Below, one piece after another: positions 27,402 through 50,035 of a stretch of 64,000 nt of DNA. The notes below the pieces were generated by a model. The model did not search any database and was not told where the DNA came from. It saw nothing but the letters and a program-made list of their open reading frames with translations. Each line of letters starts with the position of its first letter. The stretch's first letter is position 1. This DNA comes from Ruminococcaceae bacterium UBA6353 (lineage in GTDB: Bacteria; Bacillota; Clostridia; Oscillospirales; Acutalibacteraceae). Both the position numbers and the translations under genes were made by a program. The stretch lies in the NCBI GenBank assembly GCA_002437905.1, contig DJRT01000014.1, forward strand, positions 55,917 to 119,916. The letters run 5' to 3'.

Positions 27402-27411
27402 CGGACGCGAC

Positions 27412-33624: not shown

Positions 33625-33634
33625 GAGGTGTGCC

Positions 33635-34612
33635 ATGAACGATAAAAAACTCGGCGGCGGACTTTCCGCCTGCCCAAAGGCGGCACGCAAAACGGCCGAT
33701 GTCGTGGTCGCCGTGGTGCGGTGGTTCATCCTGCTGGCCATCGGCTATATTGTCATCTATCCGCTGTTTTATATGATCACCTCCTCCCTGAGCTCCCGCA
33801 GCTCGCTGCTGGATCCCACCAGCGTGTGGATCCCGAAGGAGCTGACGCTGGATAACTTCAAATTCATGTGGGAGGTCATGGACTACGGCAAGGCATTCCT
33901 GTCCACCGTGCGGGTGGAACTGGTCAGTGCGCTGATCGAGGTGCTGACCTGTGCCATCGTCGCCTATGGCTTTGCCCGCTTCCGCTTTCCCGGCAAGCGG
34001 CTGATGACCGCGGCGCTGTTCCTTACCATTCTGATCCCGGCGCCGATGATTATTATTCCGCTGATGATCAACTTTTCCCACCTGGATCTGTTCGGCATCC
34101 TGTCGCTGGTCAAGACGCTGGGAGGCCCGGATCTGCGGCTGGATCTGCTGGGCACGCCGTGGACCTTCTGGCTGCCCTCGCTGTTCGCCAACGGCCTGCG
34201 TGCCGGCATCATGATCTACATATACATCCAGTTTTTCAAGGGCCTGCCCGGTGAGCTGGAGGAGGCTGCCTGGATGGACGGCGCCGGCCCCATCCGCACC
34301 TTCTTCTCCATCGCGGTGCCCTCCTCCAGCGTGGTTATTCTCACGGTCACGGTGTTCTCCATCATCTGGCACTGGAACGATTCCTTCCTGGCCACCATGT
34401 ACATGGATACCGACTATCCCCTGAGCGTGACCATGAGCAAGCTGGTGGAACTGCTGACCTACAAGAATGTCTACCTGTCTCCGGACCGGCCGGAGGGACT
34501 GGCCTATATCATGGCCGCCTGCCTGATGTTCATTCTGCCGCCGCTGGTATTCTACCTGATCGTGCAGCACTGGTTTGTGGAGAGCATCGACCGGGTGGGT
34601 ATCACCGGCTAA
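33635..34612 (+). CDS. Carbohydrate ABC transporter permease, importer 2
   Basis: EAA loop LEEAAWMDGAGPIRTFFSIAVP. RBS GAGAGG. Confidence 0.88.
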   Translation: MNDKKLGGGLSACPKAARKTADVVVAVVRWFILLAIGYIVIYPLFYMITSSLSSRSSLLDPTSVWIPKELTLDNFKFMWEVMDYGKAFLSTVRVELVSALIEVLTCAIVAYGFARFRFPGKRLMTAALFLTILIPAPMIIIPLMINFSHLDLFGILSLVKTLGGPDLRLDLLGTPWTFWLPSLFANGLRAGIMIYIYIQFFKGLPGELEEAAWMDGAGPIRTFFSIAVPSSSVVILTVTVFSIIWHWNDSFLATMYMDTDYPLSVTMSKLVELLTYKNVYLSPDRPEGLAYIMAACLMFILPPLVFYLIVQHWFVESIDRVGITG

Positions 34613-34785
34613 GCCGGCAGCAAGAGAGCCTTTTCCCCTGCGGCGGGCGCCCTGCATACGGGCGCTGTGGCCGCATTGCATAGCGAAAAAAGACGAAAAG
34701 CGCGTTTAGAGGAAAGAGGAGGTGGCGCAGCCCTACAATGTGTCCACGCAAATACCCCATAACACACAGAAAGGATGGAACAAGT

Positions 34786-36237
34786 ATGAACGGCAAGACT
34801 TTTGTAAAGCTGCTGGCACTGCTGTGCGTTTTTGTGATGCTGCTGACGGTCACCACCGCCTGCGGCAAGGGCAAAAACGAGAGTGACGAATACAGCGTTA
34901 TCTGGGAGGAGGTCAGCGGCGACGGAACCTCCACCGGTGAAAGCAATGCTCCCGGCGGCCAGGATACCTCCGACGGCCAGGGTGGCAGCCAGGGCGGCAG
35001 CCACGGCAATACCAGCGGCGGCCAGGCCAACACCAGCGGTGGGAAGAACAACACCAGCGGCTCCGGCACCAGCACCAGCGTGGATGCCAGCAAGTACCGC
35101 GGCACCGTGGTGAAGTACGCCACCTGGAAGGATCCCAAGCTGAATGAGGACGGCAGCGTGGTGGAGGCCTTCCAGAAGCGCTACGGCATCACCGTGCAGG
35201 TGGTCAGCGTGCCGCAGGGCGGCTATATCCAGAAGATCATGGGTTACATCGCCTCCGGCGATGCCCCGGATGTGTACATTGATACCGCCGAATGGCCGGC
35301 TACCCTCGGCATTGCCGCGCCGATCACCGACGCGCAGATCGATATGTCCGACCCCATCTGGGATCAGGCTACCTTCAAGACCACGACCATCAACGGCAAG
35401 GTCTACGGCTGCAATACCCTCGGCAATGTGTGGTCGGAGGCGGACTGCGTCTTCTTCAACAAGAAGCTGATGGAGGACAACAATATCACCACCCCCGCCG
35501 AGTACTATGCCGCGGGCAAGTGGGATCTGGACGCCATGGAGAAGTGCCTGCGGGATGTGAAGAACGCCGGCTACAAGGGCGGCTTCACGCGGCCGGAGTC
35601 CCTGGCGGCCTGCTACGACGGCGACTGGGTGAAGATGCAGGACGGCAAGATGGTGAACAACAGCGGCAGCTCCATGCTGACCAATGTGTACAAGCGCATT
35701 GCCAAGTGGTATGAGGAGGGCCTGCTGGTAACGGCGGACAGCTACTTCAATGACGGCAATGTGGGCCTGTGCATCGACCCCGCATTCGGCCTCAAGCGCA
35801 CCGGCACCTTCGCCAAGATGAACCAGGACTATGTCGGCTATACCTTCATGCCCGATTATGACAAGAACACCAAAGCACAGCCCTGCGGCATCGACCGCTT
35901 CTACGGCGTGTGCAAGAAGGCGCCCAACCCGGTGGCGGCCGGCATCTTCCTGCGCTATTACCTCGATTCCGCCAACTATGACCTGAACAAGACCTTCATC
36001 TCCACCGATGCCGCCACCTTCTTCTTCAAGGTGACCAGCGCCGCCGTGGAAAAGAAGAACATCTACTACATGAACGGTGTGGCGGATGTGGTCGGTACCT
36101 TTACCTGGTTCAAGTATTGCGATATGCCCTATAGCTACTCCTCGCAGCAGATCGGCACGGCTATCCAGGCCGAGAACAATGTGATCGAGGGCTACTGCAA
36201 GACGGTGAACGAGTACATCAAGACCCAGACCCAATAA
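34786..36237 (+). CDS. Extracellular solute-binding lipoprotein, importer 2
   Basis: ATG at 34786 after AAAGGATGG. Lipobox LTVTTAC. A long Gly/Ser/Thr linker is followed by a family-1 sugar-binding-protein-like body (YATWKDPK..., GKVYGC...). Confidence 0.85.
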   Translation: MNGKTFVKLLALLCVFVMLLTVTTACGKGKNESDEYSVIWEEVSGDGTSTGESNAPGGQDTSDGQGGSQGGSHGNTSGGQANTSGGKNNTSGSGTSTSVDASKYRGTVVKYATWKDPKLNEDGSVVEAFQKRYGITVQVVSVPQGGYIQKIMGYIASGDAPDVYIDTAEWPATLGIAAPITDAQIDMSDPIWDQATFKTTTINGKVYGCNTLGNVWSEADCVFFNKKLMEDNNITTPAEYYAAGKWDLDAMEKCLRDVKNAGYKGGFTRPESLAACYDGDWVKMQDGKMVNNSGSSMLTNVYKRIAKWYEEGLLVTADSYFNDGNVGLCIDPAFGLKRTGTFAKMNQDYVGYTFMPDYDKNTKAQPCGIDRFYGVCKKAPNPVAAGIFLRYYLDSANYDLNKTFISTDAATFFFKVTSAAVEKKNIYYMNGVADVVGTFTWFKYCDMPYSYSSQQIGTAIQAENNVIEGYCKTVNEYIKTQTQ

Positions 36238-36346: not shown

Positions 36347-38905
36347 ATGAAAAAGAGCATGTTCCGGCTTCTCTCTCTTCTTGGCACGGTTGCCATTTTG
36401 GTTGGTTCGCTGTCCATCGGTGCACTGTTCACCGGTGTTTCTGCAGCCACAACAACTGTATGGGATGGTCAGGCGGCAGCGATCACCGAGGGTGATGGCT
36501 CTGCGGAGAATCCCTACCTGATCACAAACGGCGGTCAGCTGTATACTATGGTGACCACCGGGGCGGATACCGCCGGCCAGTATTACAAGCTGACACAGGA
36601 TATTTATCTGAATGATGTATCCAATGCAGACTGGAAAAATGGCACGGTAAATTCCTGGCCGAGCTGGAAAACCTTCTATGGCAATGTGGATGGTGACGGC
36701 CATGTGGTGTACGGCCTGTATTCTGTTGGCGATCAGCGTGTCGGTCTGATCCCGCAGATCTCCGGCACGGTGAGCATCACCAACCTCGGCCTGGAGAATT
36801 CCTATCTGGGAATCACCGGCTGGGGCTATGTCGGCGGTTTGGTGGGCCTTGCGTTTTCTGGCACAAGCTTTACCGTAAACTATTGCTATGCCGGGGCGGA
36901 TGTGGAGATCGCTAATCCCAATGGCGGCACGGGTCAAGGCGGCCTGGTAGGCTATGTGGAGAGTGGCTGCGCCGGCATCGAGATGAACCACTGCTATTCG
37001 CTGGCCTCGCTGACCGGCAAGGCCAACAACACCGGTACGCTGATCGGCTTCGTTGGTGATGCGCCGGCCGGAAAGGGCGCGTGGGATGTTTTCCACCTGC
37101 GCCGCAGCTACGGCGTGGCGCTGAATGCGCCGGAAACCTATGCCTTGGTTTCCCCGACGACCTATCCAGCCACCATGATCGATTATTGGCATGTCTATGC
37201 CCCCACCAATGGCGGCGCGGCGACCACCACCCATGCGTATACCCGCATCGCCGTGCTGACGGTTGATCAGATGCAGGGCACAGCGGCCAAGACCAACATG
37301 AGCGGCCTGGACGAATGGACGAATGTTTGGAAAGTGAACAAAAATGGCTATCCCACTCTGCGGGTGTTCATGTCCGCCGAGGAGATCGCCTATGAGAATT
37401 CCCTTTGGAACGGCCAGGCGGCAGATATCACCGAGGGTGATGGCTCTGCGGAGAATCCCTATCTGATCGAAAACGGCGGTCAGCTGTATACCATGGTGAC
37501 CACCGGGGCGGCTACCGCCGGCAAGTACTATAAGATCACCAAGGATATCTATCTGAACGATGTGCGCGACAGCGATTGGGCTACCGACACAAGTAACAAC
37601 AACTGGCCGAACAGGAAGACTTTCTATGGCAATCTGGATGGTGACGGCCATGTGGTGTATGGTCTGTATTCCGTGCGCGATGAGCAGATGGGTCTGCTTC
37701 CGCATGTGAGCGGCACCGTTTCCGTGAAAAATCTTGGCGTGGATAAGGCGTATTTGGCAAGCAATAACGCTCCCTCCTGGATCCAGACAGCTACACTGGT
37801 GGGCGTAGTTGATGCGAACACCACTTTAACCGTAGAGCAGTGCTATGCCGGCCAGGATGTTGAAATCCATTGCCTGAGCTCTGTGGTTGGTCTTGGCGGC
37901 TTGATCGGCAATGCCGGTAATAGCACTGCAGTAGTCAAACTGAACTATTGCTACTCCCTCGCCAAGATCACCGGTGAGAGTGTGACGGCAGAAACAAGCT
38001 ATGACAGCTGGGGCCTGCTGGTGGGCAGTATGGGCAGTGCAGGACAGGTGCGCTACAGCTACGCAGTGAACACCGATACCTCTGAAACGGCGCTGAAGGT
38101 TCCGGTCCTTTCGGCTACATGGGCCGCGGCAACTTCTGATGCTTACTTTATCTATGGAACCGATATAGCGGCGACTTACGCATCCGGTGGCAATTACAGC
38201 GGGACTAACGCTGCAAAGAACACCCATGTTCTGACCGCGGACAAAATGCAGGGCGCGGCGGCCAAGACCAACATGGGCGGCCTCGATTTCAACACGGTAT
38301 TCTACACCACTGATAGCTACCCGGCGCTGCGGGTGTTCCAGGTCGGCAAGCTCTCCCTGCCGGATTCCACGGCTGCGGTCTACCGCGAAAAGGCGACCGG
38401 CAAAACCTATAAGACCGATGCGGATAAGGGCAACTACGGTGTGTTCCGTCTGCTGGGCAGCTATGCCACCGCGGATGGCGATGCGGCCAAGATCATCCCG
38501 GAGGGTGCGGACGGCACGGCCTATACGGTCGTGGAGCGCGGCATCATCATGGGCAAGGGCACCCGCACCGAAATGGATCTGTCCAAGGCGGTCGGCTATG
38601 TGAACCTGAAGCAGGCCGGGAAGGATACATCCGCTGCCACCTGCTACTATATCCTCAGCAAAACGGACGGTTTCGATAACTGCTGGACGCTGGACGAGAA
38701 CGGCAAGCTGCAGTACAGCCTGCTGGTGAACCGGGTGTTCAAGACCGCTTTTGATACCGAGATCACCTTCCGTCCCTATGTGAAGGTGCGGGTCGGCGGC
38801 GCAGATTACACCCTGTATGCCGAGACGCGTACGGTCACCTACCGTCAGCTGGTCGGATTGGCACAGGAGCAGGAGCCTACGCTCGACTTTGGCTGGATGA
38901 ACTAA
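36347..38905 (+). CDS. Secreted GLUG-motif repeat protein A (two modules + C-terminal beta-rich domain)
   Basis: Signal peptide (LFTGVSAATT). Two 315-aa modules each carry ENPYLIxNGGQLYTMV, GNxDGDGHVVYGLYSV and three GGL(V/I)G..CY units, and end in YP(T/A)LRVF. No anchor is visible. Confidence 0.85.
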   Translation: MKKSMFRLLSLLGTVAILVGSLSIGALFTGVSAATTTVWDGQAAAITEGDGSAENPYLITNGGQLYTMVTTGADTAGQYYKLTQDIYLNDVSNADWKNGTVNSWPSWKTFYGNVDGDGHVVYGLYSVGDQRVGLIPQISGTVSITNLGLENSYLGITGWGYVGGLVGLAFSGTSFTVNYCYAGADVEIANPNGGTGQGGLVGYVESGCAGIEMNHCYSLASLTGKANNTGTLIGFVGDAPAGKGAWDVFHLRRSYGVALNAPETYALVSPTTYPATMIDYWHVYAPTNGGAATTTHAYTRIAVLTVDQMQGTAAKTNMSGLDEWTNVWKVNKNGYPTLRVFMSAEEIAYENSLWNGQAADITEGDGSAENPYLIENGGQLYTMVTTGAATAGKYYKITKDIYLNDVRDSDWATDTSNNNWPNRKTFYGNLDGDGHVVYGLYSVRDEQMGLLPHVSGTVSVKNLGVDKAYLASNNAPSWIQTATLVGVVDANTTLTVEQCYAGQDVEIHCLSSVVGLGGLIGNAGNSTAVVKLNYCYSLAKITGESVTAETSYDSWGLLVGSMGSAGQVRYSYAVNTDTSETALKVPVLSATWAAATSDAYFIYGTDIAATYASGGNYSGTNAAKNTHVLTADKMQGAAAKTNMGGLDFNTVFYTTDSYPALRVFQVGKLSLPDSTAAVYREKATGKTYKTDADKGNYGVFRLLGSYATADGDAAKIIPEGADGTAYTVVERGIIMGKGTRTEMDLSKAVGYVNLKQAGKDTSAATCYYILSKTDGFDNCWTLDENGKLQYSLLVNRVFKTAFDTEITFRPYVKVRVGGADYTLYAETRTVTYRQLVGLAQEQEPTLDFGWMN
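36458..38343 (+). repeat. Two tandem GLUG-type coding modules with a 945-nt period
   Basis: 36481-36580 and 37426-37525 (offset 945 nt) are identical at 93 of 100 positions by my count. Confidence 0.8.
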
Positions 38906-38923
38906 ACGGAAAGGGGTAAGGAA

Positions 38924-39046
38924 ATGATGAACACGAAAAAGCAGTACAATGACCCCTGTATGGAGCTCTATCGGCTGGAGCAGACCGAGCAGCTGGCGAA
39001 AACGACCAGCGATGATGGCTGGGTCGATATAGGCGAGGATGAATAA
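38924..39046 (+). CDS. 40-aa acidic micro-protein (hypothetical)
   Basis: Not in the ORF track because it is under 60 aa. Translates as MMNTKKQYNDPCMELYRLEQTEQLAKTTSDDGWVDIGEDE. The ATG lies 18 nt after the upstream stop and is preceded by AAGGGGTAAGGAA. The next gene starts 17 nt after its stop. Confidence 0.45.
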   Translation: MMNTKKQYNDPCMELYRLEQTEQLAKTTSDDGWVDIGEDE

Positions 39047-39063
39047 AAACGGAGGGTACGGCC

Positions 39064-39570
39064 ATGAAGCGTCCGTGTGATTTTTCTGCACAGGCACTCC
39101 GGCGGCCGGCCGCTCTGCTGGCAGCGGGGCTGCTGGCAGCACTGCTGCTGGCCGGCTGTCCGCGGCGCAAGCCCGCCGCGGACAGCAGCACCCCGCCGCC
39201 GGCGGATACGGCGGCAACCACCACCTCCCCGCTGCCGGAGGGCGGCGGGGAGGCCACCGGCACCACCACTGCCCCGGATGGGGCGGCGGCTGCGCCGGGC
39301 ACCAGACCCGGCAAACAGCCGGCAAGCCCGGCCACGCCGGGAAAGGCGGACGGACAGGTGCCGCTGGGGGAGGATGAAGCCCCCGCCACCACCACCGCCG
39401 GAACGGCGGCGCCGACCACCACGGCGGCGCAGCCGCAGGGCACCACCACGGCGCCGAGCAAGGCGCACACCACCACGACCAAAAAGCAAACCACCACCAC
39501 GGCGGACCCCAAGCAGGCGGTGGAGGACCCCAATAACTATGTAGAGGTTCCGCTGCCCAAGCGGCACTGA
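39064..39570 (+). CDS. Thr/Pro/Ala-rich lipoprotein (low complexity, stalk-like)
   Basis: Lipobox LLLAGC. The rest is almost entirely low-complexity sequence with repeated GTTTAP(D/S) units and a short C-terminal DPNNYVEVPLPKRH tail. Confidence 0.7.
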   Translation: MKRPCDFSAQALRRPAALLAAGLLAALLLAGCPRRKPAADSSTPPPADTAATTTSPLPEGGGEATGTTTAPDGAAAAPGTRPGKQPASPATPGKADGQVPLGEDEAPATTTAGTAAPTTTAAQPQGTTTAPSKAHTTTTKKQTTTTADPKQAVEDPNNYVEVPLPKRH

Positions 39571-39671
39571 GCGCGGGCAGCCCTCCGCATGGAGAAAAGA
39601 CACCCCGGCAGGAGCCGGTCAACGGCTGGCTTTCTGCCAGCGATCCACCGACACTATGGAAAGGTGAAAGC

Positions 39672-42600
39672 GTGAAAGCTATGAAAATGAGATTACCGAA
39701 AATCGTCTCCGTTCTCAGCGCGCTGGCCATACTGGTCGGTTCGCTGTCGACCGGGATGTTTTTTGCCGGCAGCGTTTCCGCCGAGGCAGCAAACATCTGG
39801 GACGGCCAGGCGGCGGCAATCACCCAGGGCAGCGGCACCAAGGAGGATCCCTACCGGATCCAGAACGGAGGCCAGCTGTACACGATGGTGACAGCCGGAG
39901 CGGAGGAAACCGCCGGCAAGTATTATAAGCTGACAAAGGACATTTATCTGAATGATGTTTCTGCCCCCGGCTGGCAGAACGGCACGGTGAACAGCTGGCC
40001 GAATCGCCAGGTGTTCGCGGGCAATCTGGATGGCGACGGCCATGTGGTATACGGCCTGTACTCCGTCAATGACGAGCGCGTTGGCCTGATCCCGCAGGTC
40101 AAGGGCACGGTCAGCTTGACCAACCTTGGCCTGGAGAGCTCTTATTTGAAGATCACCGGCTGGGGCTATATCGGCGGCCTGATCGGCTTTGTCGAGAGCA
40201 ACACCAGCTTTACCGTGAACCAGTGCTATGTGGGGGCGGGTGTGGAGATCGCCAACCCCGGCAGCAAAATGGGCCAGGGCGGCCTGGTGGGCTATGTGGA
40301 CGATGGCTGCGTCGGCATTGAGATGAACAATTGCTACTCGCTGGCCTCGCTGACCGGCCCCACCGCCGTCAGCGATACCCGCAGCACACTGATCGGCCGC
40401 GTGGGCGGTGCAGCCGCCGGGCGGTATCCGTGGGATCACTTCCATGTGCGGTACAGCTACGGCGTGGCGCCGAACGCCCCCGAGCTGTTCCCGCTGGCCT
40501 CCTACACCTGGCAGGGTGCGCGCATGGACTACTGGCAGATCTACGCCCCCACCAAGGGCGGCGCGGAGTCCGGCACCAACTCTGACCGCATCAAGGTGCT
40601 GACCCCGGAGCAGATGCAGGGCACCGAGGCAAAGAACAACATGGGCGGCCTGGATTTCGCGGTGACCTGGGCGGTCGGCGAGGCCGGCCAGTACCCCACG
40701 CTGCGCGTGTTCCAGCATGACGATACCCCGTCGGGGAACGACAAGATCTGGGACGGTGCGGCGGCGGCCATCACCGAGGGTGACGGCACCGCGGAAAACC
40801 CCTACCTGATCACAAACGGCGGTCAGCTGTATACCATGGTGACCGCCGGGCAGACGGCTACCGCCGGCAAGTACTATAAGATCACGCAGGATATTTACCT
40901 CAATGATGCCACCTTCGCCGGCTGGGAGACCGGCACGGTGAACGCCTGGCCGAACCGCCGGGTGTTTGCCGGTAATCTGGATGGCGATGGCCATGTGATC
41001 TACGGCCTGTATGCCGTCGGCGATGAGCGCGTCGGCCTGCTGCCGGAGATCGCCGGCACGGTCAGCGTGACCAACCTCGGCCTGGAGAATTCCTATCTGA
41101 AGATCACCGGCTGGGGCTATGTCGGCGGCTTGATCGGCCTGGTGAATGAGAACACCAGCTTCACCGTGAACCACTGCTATGCCGGGGCGGGCGTGGAGAT
41201 TGCCAACCCCAACGGCGGCATGGGTCAGGGCGGCCTGGTGGGCTTTGTGAGCAACAACAGCGCCGGCATCGAGATGAACTATTGCTACTCGCTGGCCTCG
41301 CTGACCGGCACGGCCAACAACACCGGTACGCTGATTGGGCGTGTGGGCTCGGCGGCGGCCGGAAAGGCCCCGTGGGACGATTTCCACCTGCGCTACAGCT
41401 ACGGCGTGGCGCTGAATGCACCGGATAGCTATGCACTGGTGCACACGACCTATGAAGGCACCATGATGGACTACTGGTGCGTCTATGCCCCCACCAAGGG
41501 CGGCGCGGAGTCCGGCACCCATGCGGATACCCGCATCACCGTGGTGACCACGGAGCAGATGCAGGGCGCGGCAGCCCGGGAGAACATGGGCGGTCTCGGC
41601 TTTGGCAATGCGTGGATCGCCGGCGGAGATGGGGTATACCCCACGCTGAAGGTTTTCCGCCGCCTGGACGGCGATGTGTGGAACGGCCGTGAGGCCGCCA
41701 GCTTTGCCGGCGGCACCGGCACCGAGGCTGACCCCTATCTGATCGAGAACGGCGGGCAGCTGTACAAGATGCTGGTCAACGGCAACACCACGACCGCAGG
41801 CAAATACTATAAGATCACGCAGAATATCTATCTGAACGATATATCGGATCCGGATTGGCAGAAAAACAGCCCGAACCAGTGGATCTCCTTCTCCTGGAGT
41901 GGCGATGGCTGGTTCGCCGGCCACCTGGATGGCGACGGCCACAAGGTTTTCGGCCTGTACTACGGGCACGATTCGGTGCGTGAACGCGCCGCGCTGATCC
42001 CCACGGTGAATACCGACCAGGATGTGGAGATCAAAAACCTGGGCATCGAAAACGCCTACCTGGCAGACCGCATTTATGCAGCCGGTCTGGTGGCGATGGT
42101 GCAGGGCAGCGGCAGCGTAACAATATCCCATTGCTATGTAGGCAGTGATGTGGAGATCAAGTCCAACGACTTCCAGGGCGGTCTGATCTGCTTCCTGCAT
42201 ATTCCCAAGCTGACGATGGAAAATTGCTATTCTCTGGCTTCTCTTACCGGCGCTGTGGCGGCGGATCACAGTGGTGCACTGATCGGATTTTCTTCCGATA
42301 ATGCTGTCGGTTCAACCATCCGGAAGTGCTACGGTGTGGTCACAAACGATACGACCCTGCCGGTGACCTCCATCACCTGGCCGGGCACCCGTCTGAACTA
42401 CAACGCCGTTTTCGGCACCAGTAAGGGCGGCGTGAACCACAACAATTTCCCGGCAGTGGTCGAGATGGAAGTGGAAAAGCTGCAGGGAGCCGCTGCCGAA
42501 AGCTTCCTGGTCGGCTTCGACTTTGAAAATGAGTGGCTGGTGAACCGGAGCACCTACCCGACGCTGCTGATCTTCGGCGGCGCTGCCGGCGGCGAGGAGG

Positions 42601-45479
42601 ACCTGGCCGACCAGATGGACGGCGGTACCGGTACCGAGGCGGATCCCTACCGCATCCGCACCCCGGAGCAGCTGCAGGCGGTGCGCACGGCCATGAGCCG
42701 GCAGACCCGCGGCAAGTACTTCAAGCTGATGAACGATATTGCCGTAAATGATGTGAGCAAGGCCAACTGGAAGGCCTCCGCCGTGAAGTGGGATACCGAT
42801 CCCTATGCGCTGTTCTGCGGCTACTTCAATGGCGACGGCCATGTGGTGCGCGGCCTGTACCTGGATGCCGGCGACGGCGTCGGTGCGGCACTGTTCAGCC
42901 GCCTGGGCAAGGGCGCTGTGGTGGAAAAGGTCGGCGTGGAAAGCTCCTATTTCAAAGCACAGCAGGCTGCGGCGATCGCCATCGGTGTTTCCGGCGAGGG
43001 CGTAACGGTGCGCCAGTGCTATGCGGACGAGACCGTGGAGATCGAGGGCAGCGTATACTGCGCCGGCCTGATCTCTGATGTGCGCGCCAACCGCTTTACC
43101 CTGAACAATTGCTTCTTTACCGGTAAGCTGACCGGCGGCACCGATGAAGTGCCGAAGTCCGGCTTTGTGGCGACCTTTACCGGCATCAGCAGCAAAATCT
43201 CCATCACCATCAGCGGCTGCTATACGGCCACAGCGGATGATGACTGGACCGTGCGGCCGGACGGCCCCGTGATGGGGAATATGCACATTATCAATGTGTA
43301 CGGCACGAAGGAACAGACCTTCCGCGATGACTGGGCGGCGGCCAGCTACACCAAGCTGGGCGATTATTACCGCGTGGATAAGGCGGATATGCTGGGTGAT
43401 AAGGCCAAAACGACCATGAAGGAGCTGGATTTCACCGCCGCCTACATCACCAAGCCCGGCAAGACCCCGCGTCTGCGGGTGTTCACCGGCGATGTGGAGG
43501 CCAACACCGGCACGGTGGGGGCGATCTGGTCCGGCGCCATTGCGGCCGCCTATGCCGGCGGTACCGGCACCGAGGCGGATCCGTACCTGATCGAAACAGC
43601 GGAGCAGCTGGCTCTGCTGGTCAATACCATGGTGGAGCAGCCCTACCTGACCACGGATAAGCACTATGCGCTGCTGCACGATATCCGTCTGAACGATACC
43701 TCCGCAGAGGAATGGTATAAGAAGGACGGTCTGAACGATTGGTTCGATGACTTCGTTTACCGCGGCCCCGGCTTCCAGGGACACTTTGACGGTCGCGGTC
43801 ATACGGTGGACGGCATCTGGTTCACGGTAGTGGACGGTGACCGCCGCCTGAAGGACGACTGGCACTCCTATGCGCTGTTCCCGACCCTCGGTTCCGGCGC
43901 ACAGATTGAAAATGTGGCAGTGGCCAACTTCTATTCTTCGCCCAGATGCACCCATGTGGGCGGTATTGCCGGCGGTATGACTCTGCTGACGCTGGAGAAG
44001 CCGGTGTCTATCCAGCGGTGCATTGCAGCCAGCACCTGCCAGCTCAACGGTTCGAACTCCGGCGGTATGATCGCCCATGTTCCTCAGGCTATCAGCATTA
44101 TCGACTGCATCACCCAGAGCCAGGGCGAGGGCATCCATTCCCGCGGTACCCTGGTGGGTATGATGGATTCGCCTGTTCCCGTGGTGGTGACCAACTGCCT
44201 GTCGGTGGATGTCGGCCGTCAGCCGATGCTGTGGTACAGCAGCGATAACGGCCGCCCGCAGCCGATCCTGACCAATGTCTATTCCACCTACGGCTCCACC
44301 GGCATCAAGACCGTCGGTCTGAGCGAGCTGATGGGGGATAAGGCGAAGGAGACCCTCAAGGGCTTCGACTTTGACCATGTGTGGCTGGCTGTGGAGGACG
44401 GTACGCCCACGCTGCGGGTGTTCGGCGGCAATGCCTATTCCCGCCCGAAGCGCAAGGTGACCATTTCCTTCTACACCTTTGGCGGTTCCTCTGTGCCGGA
44501 GGTCAGCGGCTACCCGGGTGAAAAGATCCCGTGGCCGGATACCAGCACCGTGACCCGCAATGGCGACAGCTTTGTCGGCTGGTACATGGAGGATACCTGT
44601 GTACGCCCGTACCCGGGGGATACCTTCTTGGAGTACGATATAGTGCTGTATGCCAAGTGGACGGTCAAGAGCTTTACGCAGAATTTTGAGACCTATCCCT
44701 ATGGCACCGCCGGGCTGGAAGGCCTTGGCGAGGACTACGAGCGGTATCGTCCCGGCGTGCTTGGTTATCAGATGGGACACACCCACGACGGCCTGGCCTC
44801 CCTGCACCGCCTTGGTCGGGATGCCGATGCCGGCGAGCAGGACTTCCAGCTGTTCGAATATGGCTGGGGCACCCTGGAGAACGGCCGCGAGTACACCATG
44901 ACCTTCTGGATCTATCCGGAGACGGTCAATGATGCCAAGGACTTCATCAAGCTGGTCCATACCGACTATCTGGATGTAAGCCAGCCGTCCTACTATGTGG
45001 AGAACATCTGCAGCCTTGGCGGGCTGAAGGTGGGCGAATGGCAGCAGGTCAAGTTTACCTTTAGGGCCTACACAGACTTCTTGGCCATTCGCACCCCGGC
45101 ACTGTCCAGCCTGTATTTCGACTCCTTTGTGATCGCCCCCAGCGGCACGATCCAGAAGGATCTGCCGGTGCCGAGCGGCGGCAGCAAGACCACCGTGACG
45201 GAGGAGTGGCGGTACGAGACGGTGTACGAGGATGATGTACAGCCCGGCGGCACGCAGACGGATATACAGCCGGGTGCGGACGATGGCGATGACAACAGCC
45301 AGTCGACGGTGAAAAAGTATCAGAAAAAGTATGTCAAGAAGAAAAACAGCGCCAATGGCGAGGCTACCGTGATGTGGATCTGGATTCTGGTAGCGGCCGG
45401 TGTGGTGGTTGTCGGCGGCGGTGTGTGCATCTTCCTGCTGCTGCGCCGCAAGAAGAACAAGCAGAAACAGCCGGAGTAA
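39672..45479 (+). CDS. Giant membrane-anchored GLUG-motif repeat protein B (five modules + Listeria-Bacteroides repeat + CBM-like domain + C-terminal TM anchor)
   Basis: GTG at 39672 lies 5 nt after GGAAAGGTG, with alternative ATGs at 39681 and 39687. Signal peptide (FFAGSVSAEAA). Five modules are followed by VTISFYTFGGSSVPEVSGYPGEKIPWP..FVGWY (Flg_new-type repeat), a beta-sandwich domain, and the TM helix VMWIWILVAAGVVVVGGGVCIFLLL + RRKKNKQKQPE. Confidence 0.85.
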   Translation: MKAMKMRLPKIVSVLSALAILVGSLSTGMFFAGSVSAEAANIWDGQAAAITQGSGTKEDPYRIQNGGQLYTMVTAGAEETAGKYYKLTKDIYLNDVSAPGWQNGTVNSWPNRQVFAGNLDGDGHVVYGLYSVNDERVGLIPQVKGTVSLTNLGLESSYLKITGWGYIGGLIGFVESNTSFTVNQCYVGAGVEIANPGSKMGQGGLVGYVDDGCVGIEMNNCYSLASLTGPTAVSDTRSTLIGRVGGAAAGRYPWDHFHVRYSYGVAPNAPELFPLASYTWQGARMDYWQIYAPTKGGAESGTNSDRIKVLTPEQMQGTEAKNNMGGLDFAVTWAVGEAGQYPTLRVFQHDDTPSGNDKIWDGAAAAITEGDGTAENPYLITNGGQLYTMVTAGQTATAGKYYKITQDIYLNDATFAGWETGTVNAWPNRRVFAGNLDGDGHVIYGLYAVGDERVGLLPEIAGTVSVTNLGLENSYLKITGWGYVGGLIGLVNENTSFTVNHCYAGAGVEIANPNGGMGQGGLVGFVSNNSAGIEMNYCYSLASLTGTANNTGTLIGRVGSAAAGKAPWDDFHLRYSYGVALNAPDSYALVHTTYEGTMMDYWCVYAPTKGGAESGTHADTRITVVTTEQMQGAAARENMGGLGFGNAWIAGGDGVYPTLKVFRRLDGDVWNGREAASFAGGTGTEADPYLIENGGQLYKMLVNGNTTTAGKYYKITQNIYLNDISDPDWQKNSPNQWISFSWSGDGWFAGHLDGDGHKVFGLYYGHDSVRERAALIPTVNTDQDVEIKNLGIENAYLADRIYAAGLVAMVQGSGSVTISHCYVGSDVEIKSNDFQGGLICFLHIPKLTMENCYSLASLTGAVAADHSGALIGFSSDNAVGSTIRKCYGVVTNDTTLPVTSITWPGTRLNYNAVFGTSKGGVNHNNFPAVVEMEVEKLQGAAAESFLVGFDFENEWLVNRSTYPTLLIFGGAAGGEEDLADQMDGGTGTEADPYRIRTPEQLQAVRTAMSRQTRGKYFKLMNDIAVNDVSKANWKASAVKWDTDPYALFCGYFNGDGHVVRGLYLDAGDGVGAALFSRLGKGAVVEKVGVESSYFKAQQAAAIAIGVSGEGVTVRQCYADETVEIEGSVYCAGLISDVRANRFTLNNCFFTGKLTGGTDEVPKSGFVATFTGISSKISITISGCYTATADDDWTVRPDGPVMGNMHIINVYGTKEQTFRDDWAAASYTKLGDYYRVDKADMLGDKAKTTMKELDFTAAYITKPGKTPRLRVFTGDVEANTGTVGAIWSGAIAAAYAGGTGTEADPYLIETAEQLALLVNTMVEQPYLTTDKHYALLHDIRLNDTSAEEWYKKDGLNDWFDDFVYRGPGFQGHFDGRGHTVDGIWFTVVDGDRRLKDDWHSYALFPTLGSGAQIENVAVANFYSSPRCTHVGGIAGGMTLLTLEKPVSIQRCIAASTCQLNGSNSGGMIAHVPQAISIIDCITQSQGEGIHSRGTLVGMMDSPVPVVVTNCLSVDVGRQPMLWYSSDNGRPQPILTNVYSTYGSTGIKTVGLSELMGDKAKETLKGFDFDHVWLAVEDGTPTLRVFGGNAYSRPKRKVTISFYTFGGSSVPEVSGYPGEKIPWPDTSTVTRNGDSFVGWYMEDTCVRPYPGDTFLEYDIVLYAKWTVKSFTQNFETYPYGTAGLEGLGEDYERYRPGVLGYQMGHTHDGLASLHRLGRDADAGEQDFQLFEYGWGTLENGREYTMTFWIYPETVNDAKDFIKLVHTDYLDVSQPSYYVENICSLGGLKVGEWQQVKFTFRAYTDFLAIRTPALSSLYFDSFVIAPSGTIQKDLPVPSGGSKTTVTEEWRYETVYEDDVQPGGTQTDIQPGADDGDDNSQSTVKKYQKKYVKKKNSANGEATVMWIWILVAAGVVVVGGGVCIFLLLRRKKNKQKQPE
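39790..44430 (+). repeat. Five tandem GLUG-type coding modules (about 0.9-1.0 kb each)
   Basis: Module boundaries are marked by YPTL(R/K/L)(V/I)F endings near 40716, 41660, 42580, 43490 and 44430. Modules 1-2 are close to the modules of protein A at the DNA level, and modules 3-5 are progressively more diverged. Confidence 0.75.
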
Positions 45480-45597: not shown

Positions 45598-47784
45598 ATG
45601 TCCATAACACATATGCCGCAGGAGCAGCGCTTTTTGCTGCAAACGGAGAATACGGCATACAGCTTTTGCGTGGAGGGCGGGGATTTCCTGCGCCACGAAT
45701 ACTATGGTGAAAAGACGGCCTTTCAGCCGTGCAAGATCAAATGCCGCTCCTTTTCGCCCTATCAGGAACGACTTGGCGGCATCTTTTCCCAGAATACGGA
45801 TCTTCTGGAATTCCCCTTTTTCGGGAGCGGCGATTACCGCTGCAGCGCGCTGAAGCTGCGCGGCATACACGGGGATTGCTGCACCCTCTTTACCTATGAG
45901 AATTATCGCATCTTCCGCGGGCGCGAGACGATCCCCGGTCTGCCGTATGCACGGCCGTCGGCGCAGTGTGAAACACTGGAGCTGGCGCTGCGGGATCCGG
46001 TAAACGCCTGCCGGCTGCTGCTGTACTATACTGTCTTTCCGGAATACGACCTGATCACCCGGCACTTCTGCCTGGAAAACCGCGGAGAGGCCTCTGTTAA
46101 GCTGGAGAAGGCGATGTGCCTGAGCCTGGATCTGCCCGGCCATGCCTATTCGCTGGTATCGCTGCCCGGCGCGTACGCCTATGAGCGCAGTGTGCAGAAG
46201 ATGCCGCTGGGCTTCGGCACGCAGCAGATCACCAGCCGGCGGGGGATGATCGGCCACCAGCAGAACCCCTTTATGGCGCTGGTAGCCGACGGCGCCGATG
46301 AGGAGCATGGTTGTGCCTACGGCTTCAATCTGGTATACAGCGGCTCATTCCTGGATGAGGTGGAGGTCGATTTTCTCGGCAATACGCGGGTGAACATCGG
46401 CCTGGGTGAGGAATGCTTTGCCTGGCTGCTGGGGCCGGGCGAGCGCTTCTGCTCCCCGGAGGCCTACATGGTCTGCTCGGTCGAGGGCCTTGGCGGGATG
46501 TCCCGCCGGATGCACGCCTTTATCCGGGAGCAGATCTCGCCGCCGGAGCCGTTTGAACACCGGCCGGTGGTGCTGAACCCGTGGGAGTCCTGCGCCTTTG
46601 ATATCGATGAGCAAAAGCTGCTGGAGTTTGCCCGGCAGGGGAAAGCCTGCGGGGCGGATATGCTGGTGGTGGACGACGGCTGGTTCGGCGAGCGCAATAT
46701 GGATAATGCCGCCCTTGGCGACTGGTACGCCAACCGCAGAAAATTCCCGGATGGTCTGGCGAGCTTTGCGCACAAGGTGGTGCGCTGCGGCCTGCGCTTC
46801 GGCATTTGGATCGAGCCGGAGATGATCAATCCGGACAGCGACCTGTACCGGGCGCACCCGGACTGGTGCCTTTCCTGCCAGGGGCGCACAAACTCCCTTT
46901 CGCGCAACCAGCTGGTGCTGGATCTGTGCAATCCGGCGGTGCTGGAGTGCCTGAAGGAGCAATTCACGGCGGTGTTTGACGGCGTGCCGCTGTCGTATAT
47001 CAAATGGGACTGCAACCGCAACCTGTCGGAGGTTGGTTCGCCCTATCTGCCGCCGCAGCGGCAGGATGAGGCCTACTACCGTTACCAGCTGGGCGTATAC
47101 GCGCTGATGAACTGGTTCCGTGAGCGGTATCCGGGCGTGATGATCGAGAACTGCAGCGGCGGCGGCGGCCGGTATGACCCGGCCATGATGGCGTATTCCA
47201 CCCAGATATGGACCAGCGATAATACCGAGGTCGAGCCCCGTGTCCGGATCCAGTACGGCACCTCTCTGGCCTATCCGGCCAGCACCATGTCCTGCCATGT
47301 ATCCGACCCGTTCCGCGGCGATATGGAACCCCACCGCCGCCTGCAGAACAAATATGATGTGTCGCTGGCCGGTATGCTTGGCTATGAGCTGGATCTGCCG
47401 AAGATGCCGGAATGGGTGCAGCAGGAGATCCGGCAGCAGATCATCCGCTACCGGCAGATAGAGGAGCTGGTCAAGAGGGGAGATCTTTACCGGCTGGTAT
47501 CGCCGTTTGAAAACAGCCAGGATGTGGCGGCCTATTATTACACCGGCTCCCGCAGCCTGGGGGAGCCGGCCGGCCAGCGGATACTGCTGTCCTTCCTGCA
47601 GCCAATGGCGGCAGGAGGCGTGCAGAGCTTCCCGCTGCCGGTAAGCGTGGCACAGCCCGATGCGATATACCGCGACGCCTTCAGCGGCGAGACGGTCACC
47701 GGCGCGGTGCTGCGTGATGGCTATACCGTGCAGACGGATGCGGAAAATTCGGCCACCCGCGTATGGCTGTGGGAAAAGCAATGA
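45598..47784 (+). CDS. Alpha-galactosidase, glycoside hydrolase family 36
   Basis: ATG at 45598 after GGAGGA. GH36 hallmarks YIKWDCNRN, ENCSGGGGRYD and NPFMALV. 728 aa. Confidence 0.9.
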   Translation: MSITHMPQEQRFLLQTENTAYSFCVEGGDFLRHEYYGEKTAFQPCKIKCRSFSPYQERLGGIFSQNTDLLEFPFFGSGDYRCSALKLRGIHGDCCTLFTYENYRIFRGRETIPGLPYARPSAQCETLELALRDPVNACRLLLYYTVFPEYDLITRHFCLENRGEASVKLEKAMCLSLDLPGHAYSLVSLPGAYAYERSVQKMPLGFGTQQITSRRGMIGHQQNPFMALVADGADEEHGCAYGFNLVYSGSFLDEVEVDFLGNTRVNIGLGEECFAWLLGPGERFCSPEAYMVCSVEGLGGMSRRMHAFIREQISPPEPFEHRPVVLNPWESCAFDIDEQKLLEFARQGKACGADMLVVDDGWFGERNMDNAALGDWYANRRKFPDGLASFAHKVVRCGLRFGIWIEPEMINPDSDLYRAHPDWCLSCQGRTNSLSRNQLVLDLCNPAVLECLKEQFTAVFDGVPLSYIKWDCNRNLSEVGSPYLPPQRQDEAYYRYQLGVYALMNWFRERYPGVMIENCSGGGGRYDPAMMAYSTQIWTSDNTEVEPRVRIQYGTSLAYPASTMSCHVSDPFRGDMEPHRRLQNKYDVSLAGMLGYELDLPKMPEWVQQEIRQQIIRYRQIEELVKRGDLYRLVSPFENSQDVAAYYYTGSRSLGEPAGQRILLSFLQPMAAGGVQSFPLPVSVAQPDAIYRDAFSGETVTGAVLRDGYTVQTDAENSATRVWLWEKQ

Positions 47785-47911: not shown

Positions 47912-49189
47912 TTATTGCGGATCGCCGGCCTGCACCCGGATAGGGGTGCCGCCCTCCACGCAGATCTCTCCCTCGCTCAGGCGCACAAAGTGCGGATCGC
48001 GGAAGCCCTCGATGGTGACATGCTCAAAGTCGATCCGGTCAAAGTTTTTCAGCTGTGCCAGGGCTATGTCGGCGCTGTCCTCCCGCGCGGCCAGCAGGCT
48101 GTCCTTCACCCGCAGGGTGATGCGCTCCTTCTCGTCGCCCCAGACGGTCATGGGGCGGCACAGGCCGGTCACCCGGCAATTCTCAAAGGTGATGTCCGCA
48201 AGGGAGCGGTTGAGGCACCAGCAGTCCTTGCCATTGAAGCACAGGTCAAACAGGTTGTCGGCATTTTCAAAGGTGCAGTTGCGGATGACGATATCACCGG
48301 GGGTGTGCCGGATCTCTGCCCGGAAATCGCAGTAGTACAGGAAGACATTGAGCGTATTGTGCCGGCAGCCCTCATTGGCCTGCACGCCCGCTGCCTTTTG
48401 CTCCCGGCTCAGATCGCCGCGGAAGCCGAAGGCCGCCGGCGCCCAGCCGCGGCAATCCTCCACCAGCACCTTGGTGCCGCCAAAGCGCAGGGCGCTGCAG
48501 GCGGTATTGAACAGGCAGCGGCGCACGGTCACATCGTAGTTGTCAAAGCCGGCCACGCCGTCGTCGCCGGTGTAAAAGGCGCAGTCTTCCACCAGTACCC
48601 GGTCGCAGGTGCGCACATCAAAGCCGTCGTGCCCGCCGTAGACCGTCACATGGCGGATGGTGATATCCTCGGCAATAAAAATGGCGTGTGCCCAGTTGCT
48701 GCTGTTGTAGATGGTGTAGCCCTCCAGGCGGATGTTTTTGCAGCGCTGCATATTGATGGCGTGCGGGCCGCGGTATTCCTCCTCGCCGGTGGGGTCAAAG
48801 CAGTTCATGCCGTTGATATAGGAACCGGGCTCGCCGATGATGGCAATATTCTCCGCATCGATCGCGCGGATCAGCGCGTTATTCCAGCGGCTGCAGGGGT
48901 CCACGGAGCGCTGTTGATCCGCTGTGGCGGCGGCGTCGACCGGCTCGAGGGTATCCTCCAGAAAGGCCAGATACTGCTCCGGGTCGCGGCTGCCCTCCAG
49001 GATGGCACCGGTCTCCAGGTAGAGGGTGGTATTGGAGCGCAGGCGCAGCCCGCCGGTGCGCCAGATGCCCCGCGGTATCCGCACCGTGCCGCCGCCGGCC
49101 AGAAAAACGGCATCCAGCGCCTGCTGGATGGCAGCGGTCTGCAGATCGCCGCCGATATAGGCACCGTAATCGGTGATGGAAACATTCAT
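47912..49189 (-). CDS. Right-handed beta-helix glycoside hydrolase, GH28 (polygalacturonase)-like
   Basis: MNVSITDYGAYIGGDLQTAAIQQALDAVFLAGGGTVRIPRGIW is a typical pectate-lyase-fold N-terminus. GHDGFDV and TGDDGVAG resemble the GH28 NTDG/GDD motifs. The ATG at 49189 follows GGGAGAG. Confidence 0.75.
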   Translation of the reverse strand: MNVSITDYGAYIGGDLQTAAIQQALDAVFLAGGGTVRIPRGIWRTGGLRLRSNTTLYLETGAILEGSRDPEQYLAFLEDTLEPVDAAATADQQRSVDPCSRWNNALIRAIDAENIAIIGEPGSYINGMNCFDPTGEEEYRGPHAINMQRCKNIRLEGYTIYNSSNWAHAIFIAEDITIRHVTVYGGHDGFDVRTCDRVLVEDCAFYTGDDGVAGFDNYDVTVRRCLFNTACSALRFGGTKVLVEDCRGWAPAAFGFRGDLSREQKAAGVQANEGCRHNTLNVFLYYCDFRAEIRHTPGDIVIRNCTFENADNLFDLCFNGKDCWCLNRSLADITFENCRVTGLCRPMTVWGDEKERITLRVKDSLLAAREDSADIALAQLKNFDRIDFEHVTIEGFRDPHFVRLSEGEICVEGGTPIRVQAGDPQ

Positions 49190-49362
49190 AGGTACACTCT
49201 CCCTTTGCTTTTTTCTCATTGTAGCATAGGCGTTTTTTCGCTGTCAACCGCTGCGGGGGAACGAAATTTTTCGTCCTGTGCGGGCACGCTGCGGCAGAGC
49301 CCCGGGCAGTTGACAGCCGTGCGAAAAGACGCTATACTAATGAGCAGGGGAGGAGGAGAGCC

Positions 49363-50029: not shown

Positions 50030-50035
50030 AAAAGC

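Follow-up and report, generated by a model that had tools for sequence, protein, structure and literature searches.

The locus studied here lies in a stretch of DNA of 64,000 nucleotides (the window, meaning the whole stretch that was analysed) and combines genes for sugar import with two genes for large secreted proteins, A and B, which are built from copies of one module of about 300 amino acids. The question it raises is what these proteins do for the cell: whether they hold a polysaccharide, cut it, or have a role to which the neighbouring sugar genes are incidental. The coordinates of the features are listed in Table 1.

Both genes are found as plus-strand ORFs with a signal peptide at the N-terminus of each product, and A has the 852 amino acids given in the first-pass annotation. 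The 1935 amino acids given there for B are counted from a listed GTG at 39672; the ATG at 39681, with a GGAAAGGTGA ribosome-binding site upstream, gives 1932 amino acids, which is also the length of the orthologues and of an identical sequence in the public protein collection. An identical sequence is present there for A too, and the orthologues of A (n=7) show 64–86% identity. The two genes had been described as neighbours, but two small conserved genes separate them: one for an acidic protein (a gene of 40–42 amino acids is called in the related loci L001, L002 and L004) and one for a predicted lipoprotein which is 89–95% conserved in orthologous loci and absent from distant loci.

Table 1. 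Features of the locus, with positions in the window
Feature	Position	Strand	Description
AraC-family regulator	21300..22076	+	head of locus; AraC recurs in related cassettes
GH16 endo-glycanase	22268..23593	+	predicted lipoprotein; Thr-rich linker; catalytic EIDFFEE motif; laminarinase-like
First ABC importer	23615..28323	+	962-aa SBP (~550-aa N-terminal extension) and two permeases
Yip1-domain membrane protein and DUF5696 protein	28350..32740	+	704 aa with TPR/NHL region; 758 aa
Second ABC importer	32737..36237	+	two permeases and SBP, immediately upstream of A
Protein A gene	36347..38905	+	852 aa; signal peptide, two beta-helix modules, 188-aa C-terminal domain
A module 1	36452..37369	+	aa 36-341; alignment
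A module 2	37397..38338	+	aa 351-664; alignment
A C-terminal domain	38339..38902	+	188 aa, mostly beta
Acidic small ORF between A and B	38924..39046	+	40 aa, conserved
Predicted lipoprotein between A and B	39064..39570	+	168 aa, Thr/Pro-rich, LLAGC lipobox
Protein B gene	39681..45479	+	1932 aa; signal peptide, five beta-helix modules, InlB B-repeat, CBM4/9-like beta-sandwich, acidic/basic linker, C-terminal TM anchor
B module 1	39789..40712	+	alignment
B module 2	40740..41657	+	alignment
B module 3	41670..42575	+	alignment
B module 4	42612..43484	+	membrane-proximal subtype; alignment
B module 5	43524..44423	+	membrane-proximal subtype; alignment
Listeria-Bacteroides (InlB B-) repeat, Flg_new	44460..44657	+	PF09479, E 1.4e-7, 32 bits vs cut-off 27
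CBM4/9/22-like beta-sandwich	44676..45158	+	Pfam-matched core 44769-45071
C-terminal TM anchor of B	45357..45449	+	aa 1893-1923, then basic tail RRKKNKQKQPE; hydropathy scan
GH36 (melibiase family)	45598..47784	+	downstream of B; present too in the locus of the relative P0111
GH28 (rhamnogalacturonidase/polygalacturonase-like)	47912..49219	-	convergent; syntenic in L001, L002, L004

Motif search and MAFFT alignment recover seven copies of the module, two in A and five in B, with the opening, GGLxG...CY and YPTLRVF motifs reported in the first-pass annotation. They are 291–314 amino acids long with pairwise identities of 27–73%; A module 1 is 68–73% identical to B modules 1 and 2. In 18 of 19 genomes the best match of B module 4 is the last module of the B-type protein, and in all 19 this also holds for B module 5. 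The AF2 model of A module 1 is a beta-helix of high confidence (pLDDT 93.8, pTM 0.93), in agreement with the fold suggested earlier. Its best Foldseek match is 3n6z (E 6.7e-6, probability 1.00, TM 0.53/0.49), and a profile of the seven modules finds the same entry at E 8.9e-12 over profile positions 5–214; this is the sole significant relative of the module in the PDB. The module is thus a homologue, by sequence and fold, of the GLUG-type domain of 3n6z (BACOVA_03286, a 'putative immunoglobulin A1 protease' of Bacteroides ovatus from structural genomics). Both have the N-terminal G-x-G-T...P-Y-x-I cap, the DGD-x-H rung and the GGxxG...NCY rungs. The B. ovatus protein differs in being a single domain outside any tandem array, Gram-negative, 18% identical and of no known function, and its aligned region shows no evident counterpart of the second conserved Trp (W69).

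Concerning the GLUG motif itself, the earlier assignment holds as homology to 3n6z and fails as formal membership of PF07581. This 28-residue model reaches 12.8 bits (E 0.17–0.18) in A module 1 alone, below the gathering threshold of 20.5, and the Pfam scan gives no match in the other six modules. It is an insensitive model, because the 276-residue stretch of 3n6z rebuilt from the alignment is also missed; three relatives of the module proteins carry precomputed PF07581 matches. No model in Pfam or NCBIfam covers the full module of about 300 amino acids, and in the literature searched GLUG has only four incidental mentions, with no function given. The modules are not rare cargo: the superfamily comprises about 100,000 protein clusters (~104,000 cluster representatives at E <= 1e-3), with up to 11 full modules in single proteins, and the scores of the module HMM in relatives (100–400 bits) are far above chance.

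The C-terminal regions of the two proteins show no similarity to each other. In B, the Listeria-Bacteroides-type repeat named in the first-pass annotation is confirmed by Pfam (aa 1597–1662 in the 1935-aa numbering, from GTG 39672); Flg_new matches all 22 orthologous tails, and the profile matches InlB B-repeat structures at E 3e-6. The CBM-like domain next to it is supported at the level of the family, with CBM_4_9 (PF02018) matching 19 of the 22 orthologous tails at E up to 1 (best E 1.6e-6), but the copy in the window stays under the cut-off (E 0.0036, 18.1 bits vs 25.9). Against the PDB, the profile of the B tail finds the CBM22 of Xyn10C (4xun) at E 0.0028; a homologue search with this tail gave one match. 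Hydropathy and motif scans agree with a membrane anchor and basic tail in B alone, and the sequence of A contains neither a TM segment nor LPXTG. The C-terminal domain of A has no Pfam or NCBIfam match, no credible match of its profile in the PDB, and no relative among 268 retrieved proteins or the ORFs of the locus. It is restricted to the A orthologues of this lineage (two matches in the homologue search), and its AF2 model, from a shallow alignment, has a pLDDT of 35. A GTDB scan with peptide patterns of protein A, which fall in its hypervariable parts, gave no match.

All the neighbouring genes that had been listed are found (AraC, GH16, two SBP/permease sets, Yip1, DUF5696 and GH36). A and B are not the distal genes, as had been stated: GH36 follows on the same strand, and GH28 lies beyond it on the minus strand. 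With a regulator, an extracellular GH16, SBP-dependent ABC importers and conserved synteny, the locus has the composition of a Gram-positive polysaccharide-utilisation locus. No terminator-like site is present on the plus strand in the SBP–A, A–B and B–GH36 gaps, and A and B may be co-expressed. The Rfam scan of the locus gives no regulatory RNA, and no phosphorylase is seen among the scanned genes. DUF5696 has no PDB homologue, and no paper on it was found in the literature searched. A comparable Gram-positive system is the MLG locus of Blautia producta, with a cell-anchored multimodular GH16 and an ABC importer (PMC10318527). Such loci share with ours the regulator, the surface GH16, SBP-dependent ABC uptake and accessory surface modules; ours, known here from sequence alone, differs in its two ABC systems, the Yip1/DUF5696 pair and the separate giant beta-helix proteins.

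The association of the modules with carbohydrate genes is strong and is seen in relatives as well. All of the 120 closest ones have 2–4 tandem modules, and fused domains include GH16 (~40 proteins), dockerins (15), GDSL/CE2 esterases (10) and DUF4886 (9), with single fusions to BNR sialidase-like, GDPD, metallophosphatase and CBM4_9 domains. A GTDB locus scan was run with the seven-module alignment. The B-type architecture (modules, InlB repeat, CBM4/9-like domain and anchor) is found in 19 GTDB loci, and also in 68 of 145 newly listed top cluster representatives. GH16 adjoins the B-type gene in 13 of the 19 genomes, and a DUF5696–permease–permease–SBP cassette lies directly upstream of it in six. 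The Yip1–DUF5696 pair is conserved in eight related loci, L001 and L002 among them; another of the eight, L084, has a 955-aa version of the long SBP. The Yip1–DUF5696–permease–SBP cassette recurs in distant Oscillospirales, and a protein of two modules plus GH16 (28% identical) has this cassette around it, together with GH36, AraC, the long SBP, Yip1 and DUF5696. The linkage to GH16 and the ABC cassette is kept across families at about 30% module identity. Since the beta-helix proteins are secreted or anchored, and since distant genomes keep their genes linked to those for CAZymes and transport, a link that gene fusions strengthen further, the association proposed in the first-pass annotation stands.

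Because the modules belong to an uncharacterised beta-helix superfamily and sit in a conserved cassette with GH16 and two sugar importers, A and B most likely hold polysaccharide at the cell surface and do not cut it. We give about an even chance to their being non-catalytic glycan-capture or scaffold proteins in a polysaccharide-utilisation locus of the Gram-positive, Oscillospirales type. In Bacteroides PULs, the functional counterpart is the SusE/F type of surface glycan-binding protein, and the binding region of the L. reuteri SRRP (5nxk/5ny0) is a precedent for a polysaccharide-binding beta-helix. In such a system, each module forms a capped beta-helix, and tandem modules would probably make up a rigid rod, to judge from the short linkers between them. 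B would be kept in the membrane by its C-terminal helix, with a charged linker of about 70 residues that could span the wall; the CBM4/9-like sandwich and the InlB repeat would lie at the wall surface, and the five modules could project outward by some 25–30 nm (an estimate that takes each module as ~10 rungs of 0.48 nm and its caps). A would be a secreted partner built from modules of this kind. Jointly, the two proteins would catch the target polymer or food particle beside the lipoprotein GH16, or provide a scaffold for catching it, and both SBP-dependent ABC importers would take up the resulting oligosaccharides. Membrane-proximal modules are conserved 'base' units, while the distal ones, those of A above all, are exchangeable cassettes that vary from strain to strain.

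The laminarinase-like GH16 and the CBM4/9-like domain suggest a substrate of the beta-glucan or beta-galactan type. The signals conflict: GH16 and CBM4/9 point to beta-glucan, GH36 and GH28 to galactoside or pectic material. Some observations also count against glycan capture: no aromatic binding platform was identified, the beta-helix is to our knowledge not a recognised CBM fold, and a membrane-proximal CBM-like domain fits poorly with a stalk for display. A bolder form of the capture reading, possible though doubtful, is that the module is an unclassified CBM-like carbohydrate-recognition unit, and that A and B together with Yip1, DUF5696, the two ABC importers and GH16 form an undescribed glycan-capture system of Oscillospirales. 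Its distal modules would be specificity cassettes exchanged by recombination, which might also dock anchorless module–enzyme fusions onto the anchored fibril.

Concerning variation among strains, the modules of A are hypervariable between near-identical strains, with dN/dS of 0.32–0.55 and dS of 0.25–0.78 vs ~0.08 in flanking genes. A module 1 has 85% nucleotide identity to L001 vs ~97% in flanking genes (dN/dS 0.55), and in L002 and L004 a B3-like module stands in its place; the most variable segment is A module 2 (70% nucleotide and 63% amino acid identity to L001, dS 0.78). The 90%-identity cluster of A has three members vs 17–39 for the neighbouring genes. B is under purifying selection (dN/dS 0.09–0.18; 0.15 for B module 3) and therefore functional; its modules 1 and 2 are merged by unequal crossover into one hybrid in L002 and L004. 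The raised dN/dS, imported alleles and cassette swaps of A, its small cluster and the changes of copy number in B also suit proteins with a general role as adhesins or coat, turned towards host mucus or IgA, other microbes or phages, with a position in the sugar locus that is incidental or due to co-regulation; coat proteins that are exposed to phages or the host, and have nothing to do with sugar capture, would be expected to be as hypervariable as A. The superfamily includes domains of IgA1 proteases, phage proteins have the same fold, and gut archaeal proteins with GLUG and Flg_new are read as putative adhesins (PMC9723798), a reading which also counts in favour of glycan capture; these proteins resemble A and B in the GGLxG-type rung motif, the co-occurrence of Flg_new, the membrane or surface location and the association with the gut. 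We nevertheless consider an adhesin or coat role unlikely: a linkage to GH16 and ABC genes that persists at such low module identity, together with covalent fusion to GH16 and esterases, is hard to call incidental, and the tail of B has a CBM-like domain.

A further explanation, which we find quite improbable, takes the modules as rigid spacers without a ligand of their own, which would only fix how far catalytic or binding domains stand from the cell. The conserved positions are indeed structural (the N- and C-terminal caps and the glycine/cysteine ladder, with a variable helix body), copy number ranges freely between 1 and 11, and the modules are placed like linkers, before GH16 or after esterases. 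In B, however, they are distal to the CBM-like domain, with nothing displayed at the tip, and A consists of modules and a small orphan domain only; the conserved positional subtypes and the purifying selection on every B module suggest more than spacing.

That the modules are enzymes, i.e. a new beta-helix lyase, hydrolase or esterase family that would make A and B multi-catalytic depolymerases, is very doubtful. PL1/3/6/9, GH28 and CE8 are the classic examples of enzymes with a beta-helix fold, the genes lie within a CAZyme locus, and a conserved polar cluster (K46, D50, N54, D55, D80 and H84, with W61 and W69) is found by the N-terminal rungs; this cluster could bind a ligand or a metal, or even act in catalysis, instead of serving as fold glue. 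Lyases, GH28 and CE8 stand low in the Foldseek list, however (E > 0.1, TM at most 0.3), and in a set of 96 diverse modules conservation at positions 120–250 is limited to Cys, Gly, Val and Tyr, with no conserved polar residue set in the helix body, where such enzymes have their active site. SRRP, PL1, PL9 and GH28 share the parallel beta-helix (Foldseek E 0.4–5, TM 0.2–0.3, not significant) but no sequence motif or catalytic residue set with the module. The lyase or hydrolase reading is rejected on these grounds. A protease is out: no HExxH occurs in A or B, and Peptidase_M26 gives no match at E up to 1 with whole proteins or up to 10 with single modules. Tandem arrays of 2–11 copies and fusion to true catalytic domains are the behaviour of accessory modules, and the modules of A tolerate wholesale swaps between strains. 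The sole characterised relative is also non-catalytic: NTD2 of M26 IgA1 metalloproteases is a beta-helix gating domain of ~319 amino acids (PMC9637739). NTD2 (S. pneumoniae 6xja/7jgj, G. haemolysans 7uvk/7uvl) is like the module in size, in lacking catalysis and in belonging to a Gram-positive surface protein, and the module model matches it with TMq 0.44–0.45 and a probability of at most 0.72 (E > 0.1, by itself not significant). It differs as a single copy which gates a Zn-protease active site and has no sequence match to the module, while A and B have no peptidase domain. The 'depolymerising' option of the first-pass annotation is accordingly not retained.

Finally, we see hardly any chance that the modules mediate protein–protein assembly, with anchorless partners (A, and module–GH16 fusions elsewhere) docking on the anchored B fibril in an enzyme complex free of cohesin and dockerin: in the window and in five other loci a module protein without an anchor does adjoin a B-type protein that has one, A module 1 is close to B modules 1 and 2, and these regions changed together in L002 and L004, but this co-variation comes from two lineages only, and several relatives have real dockerins and hence the standard system.

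The module belongs to one of the larger families of uncharacterised units from which bacterial surface proteins are built, represented in curated libraries only by a 28-residue motif and one unpublished structure. The locus and its relatives offer an experimental handle on it, with modules fused to or beside GH16 and a fixed transporter cassette in abundant uncultured Clostridia of the herbivore gut. The strain-level swapping of cassettes in A gives a clue to the way in which these surfaces become diverse. Learning the ligand of the module would annotate thousands of giant 'hypothetical' proteins, and it would clarify how polymers are held at the surface of Gram-positive gut fermenters.

Proteins A and B are built from seven copies of one module, two in A and five in B, and both ORFs are present as the first-pass annotation gave them; the motifs it quoted are common to all seven modules in the alignment. 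The modules vary from 291 to 314 aa in length, with a pairwise identity of 27-73%. In protein B a signal peptide precedes the five modules. Next come a repeat of the Listeria-Bacteroides (InlB B-) type and a beta-rich domain; a low-complexity stretch of charged residues links these to a C-terminal TM helix with the basic tail RRKKNKQKQPE. The repeat, the anchor with its basic tail and the CBM-like beta-sandwich had all been read from the sequence. The anchor is borne out, and the InlB B-repeat lies above the Pfam threshold. The beta-sandwich is CBM4/9/22-like at the level of the family: PF02018 matches the tails of 19 of the 22 orthologues, at E 1.6e-6 in the best case and at E 0.0036 in the copy of the window, which stays below the Pfam cut-off. 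The profile of the B tail also touches the CBM22 of Xyn10C. Protein A had been described as unanchored, and the sequence scan finds no TM segment and no LPXTG in it; its tail is an orphan domain in sequence comparison. The translation start of B is almost certainly the ATG behind the GGAAAGGTGA ribosome-binding site, because the resulting product has the length of the orthologues and an exact entry in a public protein collection.

Features of the locus and its surroundings (positions in the window)
Feature	Position	Strand	Remarks
SpoIVB peptidase gene	17891-19177		
GH16, predicted lipoprotein	22268-23593	+	FVASC lipobox; ~100-aa Thr-rich linker; motif EIDFFEE
First solute-binding protein (SBP), 962 aa	23615-26503	+	~550-aa N-terminal extension before SBP fold
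Yip1-domain membrane protein (704 aa, TPR/NHL-like region) and DUF5696 protein (758 aa)	28350-32740	+	
Protein A, 852 aa	36347-38905	+	Signal peptide; two modules (aa 36-341, 351-664); 188-aa C-terminal domain
Modules of A (A1, A2)	36452-38338		
40-aa acidic peptide MMNTKKQYNDPCMELYRLEQTEQLAKTTSDDGWVDIGEDE	38924-39046	+	ORF between A and B
168-aa Thr/Pro-rich lipoprotein	39064-39570	+	LLAGC lipobox; between A and B
Protein B	from 39672 (GTG) or 39681 (ATG)	+	Listed from GTG (1935 aa); 1932 aa from ATG
Modules 1 and 2 of B	39789-41657		
Modules B4 and B5	42612-44423		
tRNA-Leu(CAA)	49943-50029		Directly before low-GC stretch
Low-GC stretch	50001-52000		51% vs about 61% GC
414-aa ORF	50292-51536	-	No Pfam match; within low-GC stretch
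Metallo-beta-lactamase-fold, enolase-superfamily (MR/MLE) and SDR genes	52781-55443		

The earlier label ‘GLUG-type beta-helix’ holds as a statement of homology but not as formal Pfam membership. The Pfam GLUG model, a 28-residue motif with a cut-off of 20.5 bits, reaches at best 12.8 bits in the Pfam scan, in one module of the seven, and NCBIfam has no model for A or for the modules of B. Searched against solved structures, a profile of the seven modules gives one match (E 8.9e-12), the Bacteroides ovatus protein BACOVA_03286 (PDB 3n6z), a structural-genomics ‘putative IgA1 protease’. The AlphaFold2 model of module A1, based on an alignment of 33 diverse modules (pLDDT 93.8, pTM 0.93), shows a helical cap at the N terminus, stacked short strands and a cap at the C terminus; its sole significant Foldseek match in the PDB is again 3n6z (E 6.7e-6, TM about 0.5). 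The runner-up, with TMq 0.44-0.45 and E > 0.1, is NTD2 from the M26 IgA1 proteases of Gram-positive bacteria, a non-catalytic beta-helix of ~319 residues that acts as a gate to the active site of the protease (PMC9637739). These two are the closest protein relatives of the modules; unlike the M26 proteases, both A and B lack HExxH and a peptidase domain. The proposed search for folds of the beta-helix lyase type yielded nothing significant: pectate and rhamnogalacturonan lyases, pectin methylesterases and the L. reuteri SRRP solenoid all score below NTD2 in Foldseek. The label carries no information on activity.

The module family is very large: of 1.84 billion cluster representatives searched with the profile, 104,101 match at E <= 1e-3, 18,343 of them even at E <= 1e-30, and one protein can carry up to 11 full modules. 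All 120 closest relatives of A carry two to four modules in tandem. The Pfam annotation, which was precomputed, shows fusions to GH16 in about 40 of these relatives, to dockerins in 15, to Flg_new in 14, to GDSL/CE2 esterases in 10 and to DUF4886 in 9, with single cases of a BNR sialidase-like domain, GDPD, a metallophosphatase and CBM4_9. The full layout of B, from a variable number of modules through the InlB repeat and the beta-sandwich to the C-terminal TM and its basic tail, is found in 68 of 145 newly listed top representatives. The module is also present in phages, as three predicted phage proteins in BFVD have its fold (H9YQW5, A0A8S5TTR3 and A0A8S5VQE1; E 3e-8 to 3e-4); A0A8S5TTR3 is a ‘putative IgA1 protease’ of a siphovirus.

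In the window the gene order is AraC, GH16, the 962-aa SBP with two permeases, Yip1, DUF5696, two permeases with an SBP, A, the 40-aa ORF, the lipoprotein, B and GH36; beyond GH36 lie GH28 on the minus strand, then VanZ and tRNA-Leu. The gaps that flank A and B on the plus strand contain no terminator-like site. The nearest solved relatives of the GH16 are laminarinases and beta-1,3(4)-glucanases, at an E of only about 1e-13, and the GH36 has a weak, beta-L-arabinopyranosidase-like NCBIfam match. The extension of the long SBP apparently holds two similar beta-rich, CBM-like segments. Yip1 and DUF5696 are always paired and lie between two permease pairs, here and in L010, L016, L024, L028, L042 and L084, loci from other genomes; within the transporter cassette they are a conserved, uncharacterised unit. 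The PDB has no homologue of DUF5696, and a literature search returned no paper on it or on the Yip1-DUF5696-permease-SBP cassette.

Relatives of the module genes are clearly linked to CAZyme and transport genes, contrary to the outcome that the first-pass annotation said would refute its reading. The whole arrangement is kept in three same-species metagenomic loci, including the 40-aa ORF and the 168-aa lipoprotein; the latter was not found in distant cassettes. Among GTDB genomes, GH16 adjoins the B-type gene in 13 of 19 cases, at a module identity of only about 30%, and DUF5696-permease-permease-SBP lies directly upstream in 6 of 19, four of these with Yip1. In three loci (L011, L016 and L024) the position of A is held by a protein of two to three modules that is either fused to a GH16 ORF or lies right beside one. 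The 973-aa relative P0111 (two modules plus GH16; L084) lies in the order GH36-AraC-GH16-[modules-GH16]-long SBP-permeases-Yip1-DUF5696; a 955-aa counterpart of the long SBP is found in this cassette. The esterase-fused relative P0053 lies outside such a cassette, near GH38 and GH16 genes. The relatives belong to Acutalibacteraceae, Oscillospiraceae and unclassified Clostridia MAGs in GTDB, many from herbivore guts.

We give about an even chance to A and B being non-catalytic surface proteins with a role in polymer capture or scaffolding. In this reading, B would form a fibril anchored to the cell, and A would be secreted as its partner; the pair would serve to capture or scaffold the polymer on which the lipoprotein GH16 acts, before uptake through the two ABC systems. 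The rod would be some 25-30 nm long by our own estimate. Concerning the substrate, GH16 and CBM4/9 suggest beta-glucan, and GH36 and GH28 suggest a galactoside, arabinogalactan or pectic material.

The distribution of variation differs between the two proteins. Compared with L001, one of the same-species loci, DNA identity is 85% in A1, 70% in A2 and 94% in the A tail, vs 97-98% in the flanking genes; dS rises from about 0.08 in the flanks to 0.25 (A1) and 0.78 (A2), and dN/dS from 0.04-0.17 to 0.55 (A1) and 0.32 (A2). This elevation is confined to A and indicates, at the sequence level, that its modules are alleles which were imported and on which constraint is weak or diversifying; purifying selection acts on the modules of B (dN/dS 0.09-0.18). 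Across all three same-species loci the A modules have 62-86% protein identity or are replaced by another module type, and flanking genes have 97-99%. In two of them (L002 and L004) the first module of A is swapped for a B3-like module, and B is one module shorter through unequal crossover between its modules 1 and 2. The 90%-identity cluster of A has 3 members, those of its neighbours 17-39. This hypervariability supports an adhesin or coat protein without relation to the substrate, a reading we consider rather unlikely. B4 has its best match in the last, membrane-proximal module of the B-type protein in 18 of 19 other genomes, and B5 in all 19; the distal modules have no fixed counterpart there; judged by these matches, B4 and B5 form a membrane-proximal positional subtype. 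That the modules are pure spacers is unlikely.

Modules acting as enzymes are quite improbable. Beta-helix lyases and hydrolases have their sites on the faces of the helix body. In 96 modules of mutual identity below 55% these faces are variable, which argues against a conserved catalytic groove. Conservation is found in the N-terminal cap and first rungs (W4, G6, G14, G16, P21, I24, L30, K46, D50, I51, N54, D55, W61, W69, F75, G77, D80, G81, G83, H84 and G88), in the C-terminal cap (M274, G276 and P301) and at ladder positions of the body (C145, G164, G167, C181, G199 and Y249); the N-terminal polar/aromatic cluster remains a candidate site. A scaffold for protein-protein docking is the least probable role, and a very improbable one.

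Around the locus, the SpoIVB peptidase gene marks the host as a spore-forming Firmicute. The GC content of the window is about 61%, and the low-GC stretch at tRNA-Leu(CAA) may be an integrated element. The metallo-beta-lactamase-fold, enolase-superfamily and SDR genes further downstream possibly serve sugar-acid catabolism.

The closest known system is the MLG locus of Blautia producta, which combines a multimodular GH16 anchored to the cell with an ABC importer (PMC10318527); GLUG/Flg_new proteins have been termed putative adhesins in a gut methanogen (PMC9723798). The locus is a variation on two known things, the utilisation loci of Gram-positive bacteria and surface proteins of GLUG type, and not a new category; its worth is that it offers a context in which the function of a very large, uncharacterised family of modules can be tested.
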